Assembly (NCBI GenBank): GCA_017456495.1
Contig: JAFTJI010000099.1
Span: 1-50,314 of the forward strand
Direction of reading: 5' to 3'
DNA length: 50,314 bases
Source: Lentisphaeria bacterium
GTDB taxonomy: Bacteria; Verrucomicrobiota; Lentisphaeria; Victivallales; UBA1829
The position numbers were made by a program, and so were the translations under genes. Below the pieces are notes generated by a model that searched no databases, was not told where the DNA came from, and saw nothing but the letters and a program-made list of their open reading frames with translations. Each line of letters begins with the position of its first letter. Positions within the stretch are counted from its first letter, which is position 1. Positions 371 through 9,090 of this stretch are shown in pieces.

Positions 371-446
371 GCCAATTTAGCTCAGTTGGTAGAGCAGCTC
401 ATTCGTAATGAGCAGGTCATCGGTTCAAGTCCGATAATTGGCTCCA
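371..446 (+). tRNA. tRNA-Thr(CGT)
   Basis: 76-nt cloverleaf: acceptor GCCAATT/AATTGGC, anticodon arm GCTCA-TTCGTAA-TGAGC, T-loop GGTTCAAGTCC, encoded CCA. Confidence 0.97.
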
Positions 447-461
447 TTTTTTTGCCTTTTT
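395..461 (+). repeat. att site (left): 3' part of tRNA plus downstream T-tract
   Basis: Identical to 8071-8137. Confidence 0.95.
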
Positions 462-569
462 CAAAACCTAACTTGTTTATAATCAACAATTTACAACTTT
501 TTCGCTTTTGCTTTTCCAAAAATCAAAAAAATGCCTAAAATGCACGCAAAATGCAAAAACGACGCACGG

Positions 570-666
570 ATTACGGAAAAATTACGGAAAATTACGGAAA
601 ATTACGGAAAACAAAAAAGTTAATGATTAAAATTACGGAAAATTACGGAAAAAATTACGGAAAAAA
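570..666 (+). repeat. ATTACGGAAA decamer array, putative integrase arm-type sites (left end)
   Basis: Four tandem copies at ~570-610 and three at ~632-664. The same motif occurs twice at 8004-8026. Confidence 0.8.
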
Positions 667-707
667 CAAAAAAAGCAAGTTTTTTATTGCCTTGCTTTTC
701 CTGATCT

Positions 708-962
708 TTATTTTTTATTGTGATAGTGATATTCTAAAATCTTGATTTTATTATCTATCATTTTTTCAACTTGCTAAGGGGTTAAAATATTAGCTTGCAC
801 TTTTGTTATCTATATTCTGATTGCAGATAAATCTTTCTGCATGTTTTGCAGATTCTATAAAAAGATATTGCCAAAATAGCAAACAATAAAAAGCAATGCC
901 GCGGATATGCCTCCCTTAGTAAGATATTCTATGAACTCTTTTGAATTTTTGATTTTATCCAT
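708..962 (-). CDS. Small membrane protein, holin-like (84 aa, 3 in-frame TAG)
   Basis: RBS AAGGTG, ATG at 962, TAA at 708. One hydrophobic segment GGISAALLFIVCYFGNIFL followed by a coiled coil. Last gene of the late cluster. Confidence 0.65.
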
Positions 963-976
963 TTTGCTACACCTTG

Positions 977-1891
977 TTATTTATTATTGTTAAGCTAGTC
1001 AAGATATTTTTTTAACTCTATAAAACCTTGCTAATTCCATCTGCAATACTTTTTAGTGTGGATCGCTGATTTAAGAGAACAGCAGATTTTTTTATCAATG
1101 TAAACAGTAAAATCAATATCTTTCATAGCTTGTTTTTTTACTGCTGAATATTGATATACTGTTATCGGATATTTGCCTCTGTATTCTCCTATGTTTGCTG
1201 TAAATAGTTTTTTGTTTATCATTTGAGGTTTTAAGTTATCATAATTCAGAATATCAGATATTTTCAGATACTTTCTTGTATCAAGATCAATAGGGGTATT
1301 ATTATATGTAGGAACTATAGATTTTCCATTTACAGCCCCTAAAAAGGCTGTATTCTAATACATATAAATAAAATCATCTGATAAAAGCTAACTATTACAG
1401 AATGTATATATATCCTGACTCATTACTTGAACATCTTCAAACCTAGATAAATCAATATCGGAATATAGTACATAGATCTTGTTATAGTTTGATACATATT
1501 TTTTTATTGATTCAAGAGAAAAAGTAAAATAATCAAGATTAGTTACTTTCTAAAAAACTATATCAACATTTTTTTCAGCACTAACAGATAATAAACCTTG
1601 ATAATCTTTATTTTCTAATTTTTGCCAAAAATTACGGATAAATAATAAATCATCTGCAGTAACAGATATATTTTTATTTTCGAGGGATTTTCTAAAGTTC
1701 CTGAGCTATGATAACAGCTAATAATTATAAGATAATATATGATGTTCAAGATTGCAGATTTCCCCTAAAAAATCAATTCTATGATCTAATTCCGCGTTAT
1801 CTTGATTATGCCCCTGAATAATCTATTTTCCATAGCTTAAACTTAAAGCTAAATGTTTTTTACAGCATGTTAAACAATCCATATTTTTCAT
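977..1891 (-). CDS. Phage hypothetical protein (304 aa, 8 in-frame TAG), possibly with a glycosyltransferase/Stealth-like C-terminal part
   Basis: ATG at 1891 to TAA at 977 with only TAG interruptions. N-terminal CLTCCKKHL; internal LSDDFIYMY motif. Contains the 1031-1222 ORF in frame. Confidence 0.7.
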
Positions 1892-1893
1892 TT

Positions 1894-3432
1894 TTATTCA
1901 CTCCATATATACTCAAGTCCTATAATATTTACTGTATCAGTTTCCATAAAGGTATCTATATTATCCCCGCCGTTTACCTGTCCATCTATAACCCAATTTC
2001 CCTATAACCAACCGTCATTATTACAAGTAGGTTTTGATCTTACATTATATAATGAATAGTGTGTATGTAATGGGAAATAATAAGTTTCCCCGAAATTCAG
2101 GGAAATCTAATACACTGATTCTGTAATATTGTTAATATTATTATTGTTTGGTTTCCAGTTCCACTTATTATTTTTATCAATAATTTTGAACTTTATTCCG
2201 ATTGCTTTTTCAGGTGTTTTTTCAGTTTTTTCAATGTAAAACTAACAAGCTCTGAAAATCCAACTCCCCAAAGTTACAGAACCGTAATAGTTATCATGCT
2301 TTCCGGATTGCCATTCTGCTTTCATACATAAACTATTAGAGTTCTAACAGATATTCTAGCTCCATCCTGTCCCCTTACGCTAATAATATAAATACTGCAT
2401 ATATCCATTATTTATTATATATGTAGGGTAAACCCCATAAAGGGATCTGTCTGCAACATGTTCCCTGATAAAAGCATTGATTTCCGATAATCCTGAATCT
2501 GCATTTAACTGCTACTAACAACTAACTGTAAAATAACCATTTTCATAATGTCCACCAGTTGAAACAAACTTTTCAAGTGTTATTTGATCGTTAGGAGCTG
2601 AATAGTTATAACATTCTACACCGTAATCTATTGGCTGATCTTCATACTTGTACTATTCTGTAATCATTCTTGAACCCTCAGGGCATGTTTCGCAACCTGA
2701 ATTACCGTATGTAGCACAATCAACCCAATAATCAGTATCATTCTCTAAACAATACTTATTATATTCTGTTATGTAACTCCACTTTGTTACGCCTATATTA
2801 GTCCACCAGCATTGCCCCTTGATTCCTAATACTATTTTGTATGATAATGAATACTGATCTAAAAATAAAGGCTTCCAGTAGCCCTATACACAATTACGCC
2901 CCTAACCAGTTAACTACATTCTGCCGTAATACTAATCAATAATCAAAGGATATTTACCGCTTGAATCTTTTTCTATTCCGCATTCTTTATAAAAAATCTA
3001 AGCAAAATCATCATAATTCTAATATGTTCCTGTAAGATTATACACTTGAATCTATACAGCCTCCCAACATGGAAAATACCATTCCTTGCATTCCGTCCAG
3101 TCCTAATTCCACTATTTGCACTATTCCCAATCAGATATATTTTTAACTGTAGCTGTCCCGCATAATCCTTTTTTAGATGATACTTTAATTTGTGTAGGAA
3201 TCGCATATTCCCAAGTTATCTAGCCGTTAGTAACTTGATACACCATAGTTTCAAAATACCAACTGCACTAGTTATAGGGTATCATAGTTTCACAATTCAA
3301 TGATCTATACTTGATTCCGAAAACGCCCCAACCGTTTAATATATCCCCATTACAAGGGCAATTCTAACAAGAGATTATCTAACCTTTATCATTAGAGATT
3401 ATCTAACCGTTTTTATTTTTCCATACTTGCAT
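1894..3432 (-). CDS. Cys/Tyr/Trp-rich phage protein, putative virion/tail-associated (512 aa, 24 in-frame TAG)
   Basis: ATG at 3432 to TAA at 1894, no TAA/TGA in between. Begins MQVWKNKNG*IISNDKG*IISC*NCPC. Confidence 0.75.
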
Positions 3433-3439
3433 AAAAAAA

Positions 3440-5395
3440 TCACTCCTAACAGTTACCTATAGGGATTATTTTCAACTATCCATTCTGAATAGCTAAAACT
3501 CCATCACCTTCAGGAAGATTCAGAGATATTTTTAATTTTCCGTTAACTGATTCAAGTTTCAATGGAGCTGATACTTCTATTTTGTTCTATAAATAATCAG
3601 GCTAATTATCATCTTGATTTATTTTGACTTTATACAATCCCTAAACCCTGAAATCTAAACTTGTATTATTATCAGTTATCTTAACAGTTGAATCTGAACT
3701 TGTAAAATAAGATGGATTGATATTGATAGTCGTTGTTACCCCTATTTCCTATTGATTTTCAGGGTTAGGAACTTCTATAAATCCTATGTTGATACTATTA
3801 TTCTAACTTGATAATTTATCCTGTAAATATGCAGGGAAACAATCATTTTCATTGCTTTTCACTGTATAAGTATCTAAAAAATCAGAATCAACTATTCCCC
3901 ATGATACACCGCCTTTTGCAGTTCCAGTTAGTACATATTTGCTGTTTTCCGCTGTAGCCTATGGAGGGGTTGAAACATTAGGGATTCCGTTAGAATAATC
4001 CCATAACATTACAGCTTGCAAGGCGTTTTCCGATTTTCCCCCATTCCATAAAGATAAATTTCCGTTTTGTTTCTGAAAAACAAAATTGCCTGTATCACTT
4101 GATACTTGCTAATCAGCTTTCCATTTCACTTCTTTACCCTCTAAACCCTAACTGATCTATACATGATTAGCTAAACTTCCTATAACTTTAACTTGCTAAT
4201 CATCCTATGTTTTCCACATTAAACTACCGCTTGTATTCAGCAATTTTTGTTTTTTGCTTTTATCGTAACCGTTTATTTTATGGTACATGAAATAAGGCTT
4301 GATTTTAGTTGTAATTACGCCCTAATTATCAGTTGTTTCCTGTTTTCCCCCTATTAAAGATAAATTAGGGTAATCATCATCCCCCATAGCACTATGAAAC
4401 TAAAATTTATTCCCTAAATAATCGGGCTGATCTTGCTATGTTACTTTTACTTTATATGTATCAGAATTAGCATAAATAAGAGAATCTATATATTGTTCAA
4501 TCCATAAACCGCCCCCATTATCATATCTGATAGAACCTATTCTGTAATTATAGATTTTATTTTCTTTATCGTAAAAAGCAAGATCATTTTCAGTGATTAT
4601 TACAGCAGATTTTTCTTTTTCATTTACTGAACAATAGATAGAACTATCTGCAGATACAGATATATTAGTATCTGCTGTATAGATTATATCATCACCGATT
4701 TTTACAGCTCCCTGCATAACGAAAAATGAAAAATCTGAAAGAATCCAGTTATTTTTTACTGATCCATTATCAATACTTGTTTTTGCGAAAATTGCAAAAG
4801 GAGTTTTCAGCCCTGCATAACTTACTACAAAGTTACCTAATATTTCATTAGTTACTGTATATTGTTTATGTTCATTTTCAGCAGTAACTTTAACTGTTCC
4901 TAACGGGATTGAAAATACCCCTCTTGAACATGGTACATTATTAGTTAGTGAATCAGATTTTACAAAGTAAATATAAGGAGTATAAACAGGGTTTAATGAA
5001 TCCCCATTAAACAAAGGATTATATACCATTAACAATATAACATGATATTCCCCCTAATCAGAAAGTTTATCAAGAGATATTTTTTGATCTTGAATATAAC
5101 ATCTGTTTTGTGCCTAATCGTTTATTTGTATTCTTCCGTTTTGAACAGATAAAAAATCAGAATCATTCTCTGTAATAACAGATAACTTAAAAGGATATTT
5201 GATTTTTTGACTGCCGTTTTTTCCTGTTCCATTGTTAATACATGATATAGTGATTCCGCTTGTATTCTGATTGATCTTTATAGATTGATTATCACCGCTT
5301 AAACGCTGAGTTTTCAAATAATCTATAATCTGATTGATTGTTTTTACAGCGGAATCCTTAAAGGGCTGTCCTGATTGTAATTTAGTAGGTATCAT
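3440..5395 (-). CDS. Putative tail fibre/tail protein (651 aa, 18 in-frame TAG)
   Basis: Joins ORFs 5114-5395 and 4436-5035 in one frame and continues to TGA at 3440. Three internal repeats YxVK...PxYL. Confidence 0.75.
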
Positions 5396-5401
5396 ATATT
5401 A

Positions 5402-6166
5402 TCATTCTCCATATAAATCTTTATCCCAACCGTTAGAGTCACCGCTTTTTGTATAAACATTTTGTACTATCCAATGTTTTCCATCGTAACTAATAGAACT
5501 CTAATCATGTTTCCAGTTTCCAACATTCAAACCGAAAGTATTATCAGGTGATTTTATTGTATTGATACTTTTTTCTATTGCATTCCCTGCTGAATTAGCT
5601 GTGTTATATTTTGCTGTTTCAGTAACTACAAAAACAGCAAAATCATAATATTCTACACCTTGTTTTGTAGGTTTTTGCAATATTCCCCAATATTCCCCAT
5701 TTTCAGCCTGCTAAAGGGGTAATTCCCCTATTGATTTAATCCATGCGTATTTCCCCCTATCAGATACAGGAATAATTGTATCTTTAGCAGTAGTAGCCCA
5801 TGCAGGGAGTGTTACTTTCCCTAAACCTATTAAATAATGATTCCACATAGTCAAATAGTTAGGTAAACCCTATAAAGGTAACTGTATATTCCTAACTGAT
5901 AATGTAGCAGATTTTTTTCCGGTTACTGTATCTGTTCCAACATCATACTAATAACTATAAACTAAATCAACCTGCCATATATTAGCGTCCTTTTGAGATT
6001 TACTAATACTTGTTAAATATCCTTTATACTCTTGATAATAGTTTCCAATAACAAGAGAATTGATTTTAGAATCAATCTATGTTTCATTTCCGTATAAAGT
6101 TACATTGCAAACATTTTCTGTTTGATTTTTTGAAATATTGATACCTTGAAAAGCTGTATTTATCAT
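5402..6166 (-). CDS. Putative tail protein downstream of tape measure (254 aa, 5 in-frame TAG)
   Basis: ATG overlaps the upstream TGA (ATGA at 6163-6166). Ends GWDKDLYGE-TGA, 6 nt before the next start. Confidence 0.75.
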
Positions 6167-7074
6167 ATCAACCCCGCTCCTACAATAATAGTTTTCATTT
6201 GAGATAGAATATTAGCTGTTTTAGCTGAATAATCTTTAATTTGAGTGTTTATTTTTGCTATATCCGTAAATACACCCCCACTTGCAAAACCGCCTCTAGC
6301 CGTTAAAGAATTAGTTTTTTCAGTATAATCTATTTTCAGCTGTGGCATATTATCAAGTTTGTTTTGCAGATTGTATAAAGTTTCAATTTTTTTCCTTTGC
6401 TCATCATTCAAAGTTACACCATATTGATTTTCATACTGAGCAATTTTCTTTTCTATATCTGCTGTTTTCCCTAATCCTTGTTTATGGTATATTTGCCATA
6501 AAATTTCCTGAGCTTCATTAGTGAATGCTGATTGTATCTGTACCCCTGCAAGTTCTTTCTTTTTTTGCATGATAATACTTATCTAACCCTAATCTATATT
6601 CAGCCCTTGTTTTTTAAGATCGTTAATGATTCTCAATCTTTCTATCTACTCTTTGCTTGCAGTCGCTTGTAATCTTGCAAGCTCTAACTAATTATCTAAA
6701 TCTTGCTTAATGTTTTTGTATTCTTTTTTACTCTGTAAATCCTTTAAGATACCTTTTTTAGCTAAAAGATTTTTAATCTAACTCTAATCTATATTCAACC
6801 CTTGTTTTTTAAGATCGAAAACTATTTTCTGATATTCAGCCTAATCTATTTTATCTTGTAAAAGTAACTGTTCTATAGTGATCTGATTCTATAAAGTATT
6901 ATTCTGATCTTGATAATATTTTTCTGATCTTTTTTTCAGCTTATCTATTTTCTGCTGAATTTTCAACTGTTCAAACTGAGCCTGAGCAATATTATACTAC
7001 ATTCTAACATTCAAAAACGCCCTAAACATATTCAAGCCTGTATTTTTCTTTTGTATCTTTTTGTTTTTGCTTTT
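6163..7074 (-). pseudogene. C-terminal fragment of tape-measure-like protein (9 in-frame TAG), 5' part lost
   Basis: Helical K/Q/E-rich sequence with a 65-aa repeat (DLKKQGLNID*x*I twice) and C-terminal SLTARGGFASGG motif. No convincing start. Confidence 0.65.
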
Positions 7075-7092
7075 TTAGAATCGTATCTTGTT

Positions 7093-7935
7093 TCAGTTAT
7101 ATAACCATTCATAATCAAGTATCGGCAATATAACATCATTGCCGGTTTTGTTTTGTTTCAGTTTTATCATTTTTGAATTAAAATCTATTTCGTTCCATTC
7201 AAGATTACAAAGATCACCTAATCTAAGCCCTGTATAGAATGCTAAACGGAATAAAGGAATAATTAAGCCACTTGTATCTTTATCTTTGCTACTAAGAATT
7301 AACTTTATTTCCTCTTCCGTGAAAATATCTCTTGTATTTTTTTCATGTTTAACTTTATCAACTGTAGTAAATGGGTTAATGGTGAAACTGCTATTCCTTA
7401 AAACAGAATCAAAAATCACTGAACAAAACATAATGATTCTATTAACAGAATGGGACGAAAGATTAGAGATAGTTTGTTTTTGTTTTATAATTTTGCCGTT
7501 CCTGATATATTCTGATTGATTATTATATCTTCCGTGTTCCTTGATATAATCAACATAACCGATAATATGATCTTCCGTTATCTCTGAGATATATTTAACT
7601 TTATCATTCTCTAAAAATGAACAAAAATCGAACCAATAAGCAAGATACTGTTTTTTTGTTTTCTCTGCAATGTTTTTTCTATTGCCTTTATTCAAGGCAA
7701 TATTTACCGCTGTCCTAATCTCTATATTCTCCGATCCTTTAATTTCGGTGATTCTGTTCCGGTGATACTCAATCGGATTAACAGCTTCATTTTCGTTTTT
7801 TAATTCTTCTTTTCTTTTTTGCTCAAACGCCTTTGCCTCTCTTTCTGTGGTACATCCTTCACATGTTCCGTAAAATCTTTTGCGATTAACCATAAATTCA
7901 TAATAGAATACATTTTTTTTCTTTTTGATTGCCAT
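7093..7935 (-). pseudogene. Tyrosine integrase, C-terminally truncated
   Basis: Arm-binding-like N-terminus, YTGLRLGDLCNLEW (catalytic Arg box) and KQNKT. Stops before the HxxR and Tyr boxes. RBS AAGGAGG. Confidence 0.85.
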
Positions 7936-7969
7936 TTTTTAGCCTCCTTAAAGTGTTGATTTCAGGTAA

Positions 7970-7998
7970 AATATACACCCTCAGAATGCAAAATGCAA
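7970..7998 (-). promoter_or_regulatory. Putative integrase promoter
   Basis: Minus strand TTGCAT-17 nt-TATATT upstream of the RBS. Confidence 0.55.
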
Positions 7999-8003
7999 AC
8001 AAA

Positions 8004-8026
8004 AATTACGGAAAAATTACGGAAAA
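8004..8026 (+). repeat. ATTACGGAAA x2, arm-type sites (right end)
   Basis: Same motif as 570-666. Confidence 0.75.
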
Positions 8027-8070
8027 TCTTTCATTTTTTAAGCGTTTTGAGTTCAAAATAGCCGTTTTTT

Positions 8071-8137
8071 CAGCTCATTCGTAATGAGCAGGTCATCGGT
8101 TCAAGTCCGATAATTGGCTCCATTTTTTTGCCTTTTT
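8071..8137 (+). repeat. att site (right): duplicated tRNA-Thr 3' fragment
   Basis: Identical to 395-461; lacks the 5' acceptor strand and D arm. Confidence 0.95.
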
Positions 8138-8337: not shown

Positions 8338-9090
8338 ATGGACAAAACGCAGAAAAAACATTTTACATTGATTGAACTGCTCGTGGTGATCGCCATCATC
8401 GCGATTCTGGCAGGTATGCTGCTGCCGGCTTTGAACAATGCAAGAGAACAGGGACGTGCAAAGGGTTGTTTGAACAATATCAAACAGACCGGAGCGGTTT
8501 GTCTGTTATATGCAAACGATTACGATGATGTTCTTCCCTTCAAGGGGCATACAGATTCCAAGACGGGGATCAATTACGGCGCATATTTTTCAAGCGGTTA
8601 CCATTGGCAGGATGCAATGTATAAGGCATATAATGGAAGTGTAAACAAAAATCTCTCCATGTGTCCGGCAACACTCACAAAATTTAAACCTACAGTCAAT
8701 ACAACCTATGGAATGAATAATTATCTGGCTGCCGGGACAATGATACATAGCAGTTATCATGCAAAATTCAATGTTCCGATCCGGAAAGTTTCTCAGTTGA
8801 GAGCAGCCTCTAAAAGTGGACTGATGGTCGAAAACAGAGGTCACGGCGGTTGGGGCGGTAATGAATCAGAAACCGCAACAGATGCAACCCGCACCCACTT
8901 TATCCATAAAGAACGGGCTAATGCTGTTTTTATCGATGGCCATGCAGAATCCAGAACATACTCCGGCATCCCTTCCTATGAATCGACCCTTTACACTGCA
9001 ATGAAAAAAGGGCAGTCTGAACGGCTCAATACTTACTTTCATATAGGCGAAGTTTTCAGTCATACAGCCACAGCTTACCCCGGATTGTAA
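8338..9090 (+). CDS. Prepilin-type N-methylation protein, DUF1559/H-X9-DG type
   Basis: [24 protein letters not shown]; C-terminal [13 protein letters not shown]. Confidence 0.9.

Follow-up and report, generated by a model that had tools for sequence, protein, structure and literature searches.

A 50,314-nt contig of a Lentisphaeria bacterium (JAFTJI010000099.1, assembly GCA_017456495.1), referred to here in its full length as the window, carries close to its start an island of low guanine-plus-cytosine (GC) content at positions 462-8070. This island probably derives from a temperate, siphovirus-like Victivallales phage, of which it is a defective remnant, and TAG is a sense codon in it, most likely for glutamate. 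Comparison with recoded and standard-code relatives makes it quite probable, furthermore, that a lineage of temperate siphovirus-like Victivallales phages writes its structural genes with UAG as glutamate. TAG-recoded prophages in standard-code hosts have already been published; the novelty lies in the host phylum, in the decayed state of the element and, if it is right, in the amino acid.

TAG as a sense codon beside a standard-code host

The original prediction described six minus-strand open reading frames (ORFs) between positions 708 and 7074 that become continuous when TAG is read through, and the ORF listing returned identical coordinates for all of them. In-frame TAGs, estimated by hand at about 67, numbered exactly 67 in a scripted count (3, 8, 24, 18, 5, and 9 across ORF1-ORF6), and TAA and TGA, said to be absent from the interior of these frames, occur among the 2,114 codons only as the six terminal stops (three TAA and three TGA). 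Five of the frames begin with ATG, again as described. ORF6, being a fragment, lacks a full-length start; its frame is open from 7074, with a start at TTG 7035 or at ATG about 7029. In the other two minus-strand frames, TAA or TGA makes up 4.3% and 8.3% of the codons, and at these rates the ln P for 2,108 codons being free of both by chance would be -92 to -184.

Coding density, which the original prediction proposed to compare between genetic codes, gives the same picture. When TAG is read as sense, ORFs of at least 100 amino acids (aa) cover 90.5% of positions 462-8070, compared with 24.3% under code 11 and 24.6% if TGA is the sense codon (code 4). Code 11 ORFs cover 95.3% of the host part of the window, and only short ones are found in its first 8 kb. 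An abundance of TAG with no internal TAA or TGA, together with coverage that is restored by reading through TAG, is the hallmark of stop recoding.

The host had been thought to be Lentisphaerae-like, and this was borne out, the host group being Victivallales (Lentisphaeria). Its genome, a 233-contig metagenome bin that is 90.9% complete and has 41 tRNAs, encodes prfA (451 bits, over the cut-off), glnS (756 bits, over the cut-off), and gatB (602 bits). TAG terminates 44 of the 1,264 host frames of at least 400 codons (3.5%). Because prfA is present and TAG ends these long frames, the host reads TAG as a rare stop and uses the standard code. The frames, the host prfA, and the host TAG stops thus support the claim that phage late genes use TAG as a sense codon within a standard-code host. 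The host prfA itself (L125 1483-2493, G000:C200) encodes 336 aa and ends in TGA, and the profile runs about 22 residues further; the protein keeps the GGQ motif and the P-x-T-type region.

The same recoding is seen in relatives of the island. A search for complete relatives, proposed at the outset, succeeded in part, as three recoded contigs (L061, L086, and L115) were recovered with a loose ORF5 DNA motif, all of them partial. The metagenome contig L061 (9,803 bp, 32% GC) is heavily recoded: its nine genes contain 150 TAGs, and the largest frames obtained by read-through are interrupted by neither TAA nor TGA. Its gene order is capsid, connector, tape-measure-like, ORF5-like, and ORF4-like, with the capsid matching PF05065 (E value 1.2e-22) and phrog_617 (E value 1.8e-34). 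L086 and L115 are smaller recoded pieces. Other searches were negative: no relatives of ORF4 or P0001 were found in the viral contigs searched, none of ORF3 by alignment against metagenome contigs, with motifs that included TAG-coded positions, and none of ORF5 by alignment against genome contigs. The same holds for tblastn of ORF4 and ORF5 against 50,697 phage records and for one stricter ORF5 motif, and degenerate ORF3 DNA motifs gave only chance matches in IMG/VR.

Nonsense mutation in a decaying standard-code prophage would suit an element that is defective, with a truncated integrase, and that lacks a decoder. This explanation of the TAGs is nevertheless hardly credible, as decay would yield all three stops together with frameshifts instead of one stop codon exclusively, and as the same pattern recurs in relatives from other samples, both in L061 and in the database protein P0119, which is identical to the L061 homologue of ORF5 but for 4 residues and has Q at every one of the 10 L061 TAG sites. 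Standard-code relatives also exist. In one of these, L114 (34% GC), the ORF5-like gene (2572-3369) seems to end at a TAG, six residues past the conserved DLY where relatives end; TAG would then be a stop in some close relatives and sense in others. In L050, L066, and L100 (34-41% GC), the ORF5-like gene is split between frames and contains no TAG, which may reflect a frameshift or sequencing errors.

Errors of assembly are not the source of the TAGs. In Logan contigs from four runs of four studies, labelled as gut metagenomes, parts of the island are present at a word depth of 2-8. None of the 24 variant places that were displayed and checked falls in a TAG codon (another 92 were not displayed), and the pieces listed as identical to the window include 7 of the 67 TAG codons in run X3 and 8 of the 67 in run X5. 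Reads at odds with the TAGs had been named as a ground for abandoning the claim; at the places checked, the assembled Logan contigs of the four runs show no such conflict. Pieces of the island are also found in X5, which is an RNA library, and carry-over of DNA is possible there.

The amino acid at TAG

Code 15, in which TAG is glutamine, was assumed in the original prediction. This part of it is not upheld: comparative evidence favours glutamate over glutamine, and we consider TAG, with good though not full confidence, to be glutamate. In a Codetta-like test, profiles were built from relatives of ORF3-ORF6, and log emission probabilities were summed over 43/56 aligned TAG positions. Glutamate scored best, 16.8 nats over lysine and 25.4 nats over glutamine and aspartate; it was also best in each of the four ORFs, and when the TAG columns were resampled 5,000 times, it won in 4,997 cases. 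As a control, canonical codons represented by 8 or more columns were decoded in the same way; 37 of 40 came out right, the misses being CAG (K over Q by 1.1), ATG, and CAT. The per-column log ratio of Glu to Gln emission, ln(eE/eQ), had a mean of 0.59 at TAG, compared with -0.06 at Gln and 0.81 at Glu codons; TAG columns differed from canonical Gln columns (Mann-Whitney p 3.8e-5), and none of 5,000 Gln-column resamples reached the observed E-over-Q sum. Because the database translates relatives with table 15, these profiles are biased towards glutamine, and glutamate still comes out best.

Lysine is second in this test, and aspartate is common in the TAG columns of ORF4; in addition, a CUA tRNA charged by a non-discriminating glutamyl-tRNA synthetase (GluRS) and partly amidated could produce a mixture of Glu and Gln, gatB being present in the host. 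Another residue such as Lys or Asp, or an ambiguous Glu/Gln mixture, is nonetheless very improbable, since canonical Lys columns (p 7.7e-13) and canonical Asp columns (p 1.1e-7) are both distinct from TAG columns, and since columns with invariant glutamate carry TAG.

These invariant columns come from homologue sets in the standard code, which were verified at the DNA level to have no in-frame stop. TAG30 and TAG99 of ORF5 each align with glutamate in 14 of 14 such homologues. Across the TAG columns, glutamate accounts for 42% of the homologues' residues in both ORF5 (72 residues) and ORF6 (78 residues), and glutamine for 0% and 5%, respectively, compared with 15-19% Q at canonical Gln columns in the same homologues. 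Where the column is conserved (consensus of at least 0.4), 6 of 7 TAG cells fall on an E consensus (Fisher p 2.1e-6; 48 and 31 distinct standard-code homologues), and 0 of 4 cells on a Q consensus are TAG.

The composition of the proteins points in the same direction. Canonical Glu is depleted relative to the family in all four ORFs (5.7 versus 7.6%, 3.5 versus 5.0%, 3.9 versus 5.9%, and 5.3 versus 10.4%), and canonical Gln is already at the family level. When TAG is taken as Gln, the proteins become outliers in Gln, in Glu, and in net charge, with a z score of +3.3 to +5.5 for the net charge of the tape-measure-like protein; when it is taken as Glu, composition lies mostly within 2 standard deviations. 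For the 236-aa protein of L061, the Gln reading gives z scores of -6.3 for Glu and +7.1 for Gln, and the Glu reading gives +0.3 and +0.9. Low GC content is not the cause of this shift, because the tape-measure-like protein of L114 has normal contents (11.3% E and 4.7% Q) despite 34% GC. At the five ORF5 TAG columns of the window, L114 has the codons GAA, AGT, GAA, GAT, and GAA.

Individual relatives add to this. In the comparison of ORF3 with its database relative P0099, canonical Q sites are E in 0 of 11 cases and canonical E sites are Q in 0 of 27, whereas TAG sites correspond to 11 Q, 9 E, and 1 D; this mix fits a relative that would itself be recoded and was called with table 15. L061 alone provides an independent data set, in which 55 aligned TAG columns are indistinguishable from E columns (p 0.57) and differ from Q columns (p 0.0013).

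Several points weigh against glutamate. Glutamate and glutamine are similar residues; in the database profiles, canonical E columns resemble glutamate slightly more than TAG columns do (p 0.028); only a handful of Gln columns are conserved (4-8 cells); and the aligned sequences are related, so that the p-values overstate the difference. With distant standard-code profiles, moreover, pooled Gln columns themselves come out as "E best" (Q at -18.0 over 117 columns and at -16.4 over 61 columns). Given this bias of the bare ranking towards Glu, only the comparison with Gln columns carries weight.

These points lend themselves to a reading in which the recoded remnant is the same but TAG is glutamine (table 15), the TAGs opposite glutamate having arisen by GAG-to-TAG mutations as tolerated E-to-Q replacements. 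Every phage TAG reassignment in the portions of the literature examined is to glutamine, and the Lak phage paper, in the part covered here, read its own occasional TAG-E alignments as GAG-to-TAG changes with TAG still as Gln (PMC8346664). The host possesses a glutaminyl-tRNA synthetase (GlnRS), so the published route to TAG as Gln was open to this phage, and an internal repeat of ORF4 (PDYL motif) aligns one TAG with a canonical Q, as judged by eye. Glutamine is, however, unlikely. TAG and Gln columns differ in three data sets (p 3.8e-5, 1.6e-4, and 1.3e-3); both invariant-E columns of ORF5 carry TAG; and 9 of 21 TAG sites are E in the P0099 comparison, in which no canonical Q site is. Translation as glutamine would give 7-13% Gln and 2.5-5.7% Glu, outlying values for every family tested and against the GC-matched relative. 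Furthermore, CAG is not depleted (35 CAG and 59 CAA), unlike what would be expected if TAG were its synonym under AT pressure. Glutamate is therefore kept as the preferred assignment.

The remnant at tRNA-Thr and its known counterparts

The island has 27-33% GC per kb, against 46.8% for the genome. Its target was a host tRNA-Thr with anticodon CGT on the plus strand (371..446; found by ARAGORN, and by Rfam RF00005 at 72 bits). A perfect 67-nt direct repeat, consisting of the 3' half of the tRNA-Thr and a further 15 nt, brackets the island as attL (395..461) and attR (8071..8137; 100% identity), the right copy being recognized by Rfam as a partial tRNA at 32.4 bits. Just inside attL lies a cluster of AAAATTACGGAAAA-type direct repeats (547..674), and copies of ATTACGGAAAA-type repeats lie just inside attR (7982..8027), both belonging to repeat families D1, D2, and D4; these clusters are candidate arm-type sites of the integrase.

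The integrase itself is a minus-strand tyrosine integrase fragment of 280 aa with no TAG (7093..7935; PF00589, E value 4.2e-10; phrog_1 integrase, E value 1.2e-26), which matches PF00589 only at profile positions 3-73 of 172, its C-terminal catalytic half being missing. The ORF6 frame opens 18 bases downstream, and the interval between the two fragments (7075..7092) is, from reading of the sequence and from a Logan contig, the presumed junction of a deletion. The earlier claim of a temperate phage is thus upheld by the att repeats at a tRNA gene and by the integrase, and needs amendment in that the element is not an intact prophage but a 7.6 kb remnant: the integrase and the tape-measure-like gene are cut, genes for head, packaging, and replication are missing, and there is no suppressor tRNA. 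Six ORFs are what is left of a late gene set whose capsid and connector are seen only in L061.

The short form could be imagined as an assembly collapse, with a complete recoded prophage actually residing at the locus. The window is indeed one contig of a fragmented bin, the proteins of the relatives come from contigs of 24-39 kb, and odd joints (4890-7045 and 7811-4439) occur in single Logan contigs. Yet collapse is improbable. A 777-nt Logan contig of run X1, built independently, spans 6872-7648 across the presumed junction with 1 difference; the remaining contigs of the genome all lie well away from 30% GC, the lowest being at 38%; ORF5 has no second copy in the genome; and the island depth in X1 (4-5) matches that of the single-copy host flank (3-4). 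It does count against the defective form that the junction is bridged only by this one contig and that X1 may be the source sample of the window itself. No attL-attR joint or circle junction was found among the Logan contigs, which cannot show absence. A clean empty site was sought in the same-genus genome G001 and rejected, as the right flank matches from 8187 (87-92% identity) but the upstream sequence is different and lacks the tRNA.

From the frames, the att sites, both truncations, the host code, and the Glu-like TAG columns, all of which are directly visible, we infer a decoder, an order of events, and silence of the late genes in the host. A tyrosine integrase would have inserted the phage in tRNA-Thr(CGU), duplicating 67 nt as attL and attR. 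The late genes of this parent phage would have been written with TAG as sense and its integrase kept TAG-free, which would make the integrase translatable by the host alone. The parent would also have supplied a UAG decoder, presumably a CUA tRNA to which the host GluRS or a phage enzyme would attach Glu, and late proteins would have been made only once this tRNA was expressed, as is proposed for other recoded phages in the part of bioRxiv 10.1101/2021.08.26.457843 covered here. A later internal deletion would then have removed everything from integrase codon 280 through to the last third of the tape-measure-like gene, leaving the distal late module: the tape-measure C-terminus, ORF5, ORF4, ORF3, ORF2, and ORF1. 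With host release factor 1 present and TAG terminating translation, the six proteins would not be made unless the phage supplies a UAG decoder. Since the remnant has none, the six genes should now be silent cargo, and with its integrase truncated the element should be unable to excise.

The missing decoder also counts against the main reading. A CUA tRNA, which the original prediction suggested looking for, was found neither in the island nor among the 41 genome tRNAs, nor in L061, L086, or L115, and the island and these three contigs likewise yielded no phage suppressor tRNA, aminoacyl-tRNA synthetase, or release factor. Lack of GlnRS in the host, which might have explained why Glu was used, is ruled out by glnS. 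Suppressor tRNAs occur in about 40% of TAG-recoded genomes, according to the part of Borges et al. (bioRxiv 10.1101/2021.08.26.457843) covered here.

The closest known counterparts are the TAG-recoded Garnet and Topaz prophages. As described in the same portion of that work, these are about 24 kb long, sit at tRNA-Met and tRNA-Thr, and have TAG-free integrases; their hosts are standard-code Prevotella and Oscillospiraceae, with Firmicutes and Bacteroidetes as predicted hosts. The island resembles them, so far as they are described there, in being a low-GC element at a tRNA gene (that of the Topaz prophage is also tRNA-Thr), in combining a TAG-free integrase with TAG-rich structural genes, in its standard-code host, and in its fragmented code 11 gene calls. 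It differs in that they are complete, read TAG as Gln, and belong to Bacteroidetes or Firmicutes, whereas here a 7.6 kb remnant with a truncated integrase and Glu-like TAG resides in Victivallales. Neither the window nor the relatives examined contain a terminase by which it could be placed in the large-terminase tree of Borges et al.

Where phage and host codes differ, Borges et al. (bioRxiv 10.1101/2021.08.26.457843), in the sections consulted, find only changes of TAG to Gln and of TGA to Trp, a restriction explained there by the readiness of host GlnRS and tryptophanyl-tRNA synthetase (TrpRS) to accept suppressor tRNAs. No report of TAG as glutamate in a phage or bacterium was found in the literature searched, which did not cover the supplementary tables of Borges et al. 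For crAss-like and Lak phages, table 15 has proteomic support (PMC9523058, in the part covered here). The island shares with these phages, as portrayed in the parts of the literature covered, the use of TAG as sense and of TAA and TGA as stops and the concentration of recoding in late genes; those phages, however, are virulent, much larger, and read TAG as Gln, whereas Glu fits better here. The alignment of TAG with glutamine that table 15 would predict is not seen in the island.

Glutamate is encoded by TAG and TAA in some eukaryotic nuclear codes, such as those of peritrich ciliates and Blastocrithidia, and a 2026 preprint refers to such a TAA/TAG change to glutamate as already established. 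The island is like these codes in having UAG as glutamate and unlike them in that they are cellular and have changed TAA as well, whereas in this phage TAG alone is affected and TAA ends three of the six ORFs. With the standard-code prophages of Victivallales, it shares the gene order ORF6-ORF5-ORF4 and a protein identity of 30-45%; those prophages differ in having 45-63% GC, no in-frame stops, and TAG as a stop.

If UAG does mean glutamate, either an amber suppressor tRNA that accepts Glu or a retargeted GluRS would be needed, and amber recoding in phages would not depend on how readily GlnRS charges CUA tRNAs. A clade with TAG as Glu would break the rule of Gln and Trp only and would point to another charging route. 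Gene callers using table 15 would put Gln for Glu throughout such a clade, distorting composition, charge, and homology, as is seen in P0119. In addition, recoded temperate phages are extended to a third host phylum, and a recoded prophage decaying to untranslatable cargo offers a natural test of how long frames persist when the decoder is gone.

Late proteins and neighbouring sequence

Comparison of the read-through proteins with phage databases, another of the checks proposed, brought no convincing Pfam or PHROG family for any of the six ORFs: ORF2, ORF3, and ORF5 had no matches, and those of ORF1, ORF4, and ORF6 were weak. The names "tape measure" and "distal tail" are therefore presumed, being based on position and size. 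Standard-code prophage regions of same-family genomes carry syntenic counterparts of ORF6, ORF5, and the ORF4 N-terminus, at 28-45% identity.

All six ORFs lie on the minus strand. ORF6 (6163..7074; up to 303 aa, 9 TAGs) is the tape-measure-like C-terminal fragment; its 17 relatives have lengths of 526-922 aa and align with ORF6 only over their C-terminal part, and ORF6 also matches the C-terminal part of a 905-aa L061 protein. Within ORF6, a 54-nt direct repeat (6581-6634 and 6776-6829; 87% identity, 195 nt apart) encodes DLKKQGLNID-TAG-x-TAG-I, with the TAGs kept in both copies. ORF5 (5402..6166; 254 aa, 5 TAGs) has a distal-tail position after the tape-measure-like gene and 31 relatives. 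Of the 251 genomes of the order, 72 have a member of its family, and in-frame stops occur only in the copy of the window. A structure model of ORF5 has a mean pLDDT (predicted local distance difference test) of 90.1 and gave no PDB match at an E value of 0.001 or below among the 760 listed, SPP1 Dit appearing only at 0.12.

ORF4 (3440..5395; 651 aa, 18 TAGs) has 98 relatives in a representative library and, by position, may be a tail fibre or tip-like protein. Its N-terminal 93 aa contain no TAG, the first being codon 94, and are the only part common to standard-code prophages (39-42% identity; 4 of 60 related genomes). The database protein P0013 is exactly this 93-aa fragment, a code 11 call that ended at the first TAG. 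ORF3 (1894..3432; 512 aa, 24 TAGs) is a cysteine-rich late protein with database relatives P0099 (71-73% identity) and P0100 (64%), and it has standard-code relatives in prophages of the same order. ORF2 (977..1891; 304 aa, 8 TAGs) has weak relatives in L026 and L086. ORF1 (708..962; 84 aa, 3 TAGs) has one hydrophobic segment and weak PHROG matches at E values of 0.005-0.08, one of them a holin family, and is possibly, on this weak basis, holin-like.

A standard-code prophage of the genome G014, situated by a tRNA-Arg (L020 6904-18669), encodes 9 proteins, one of 1,101 aa, with no PHROG match at an E value of 0.001 or below. At the contig start, positions 1-300 of the window reach a summed contig word depth of 260-670 in all four Logan runs, compared with 2-8 for the island; the stretch is either multi-copy or widely shared, and several alternative joints occur there. 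On the other side of the island, about 100-190 nt within 8338-8540, the 5' part of a 250-aa host ORF (8338-9090), recur at 72-90% identity in dozens of contigs belonging to the two same-genus genomes. The N-terminus of this ORF resembles a prepilin-type cleavage/methylation signal.

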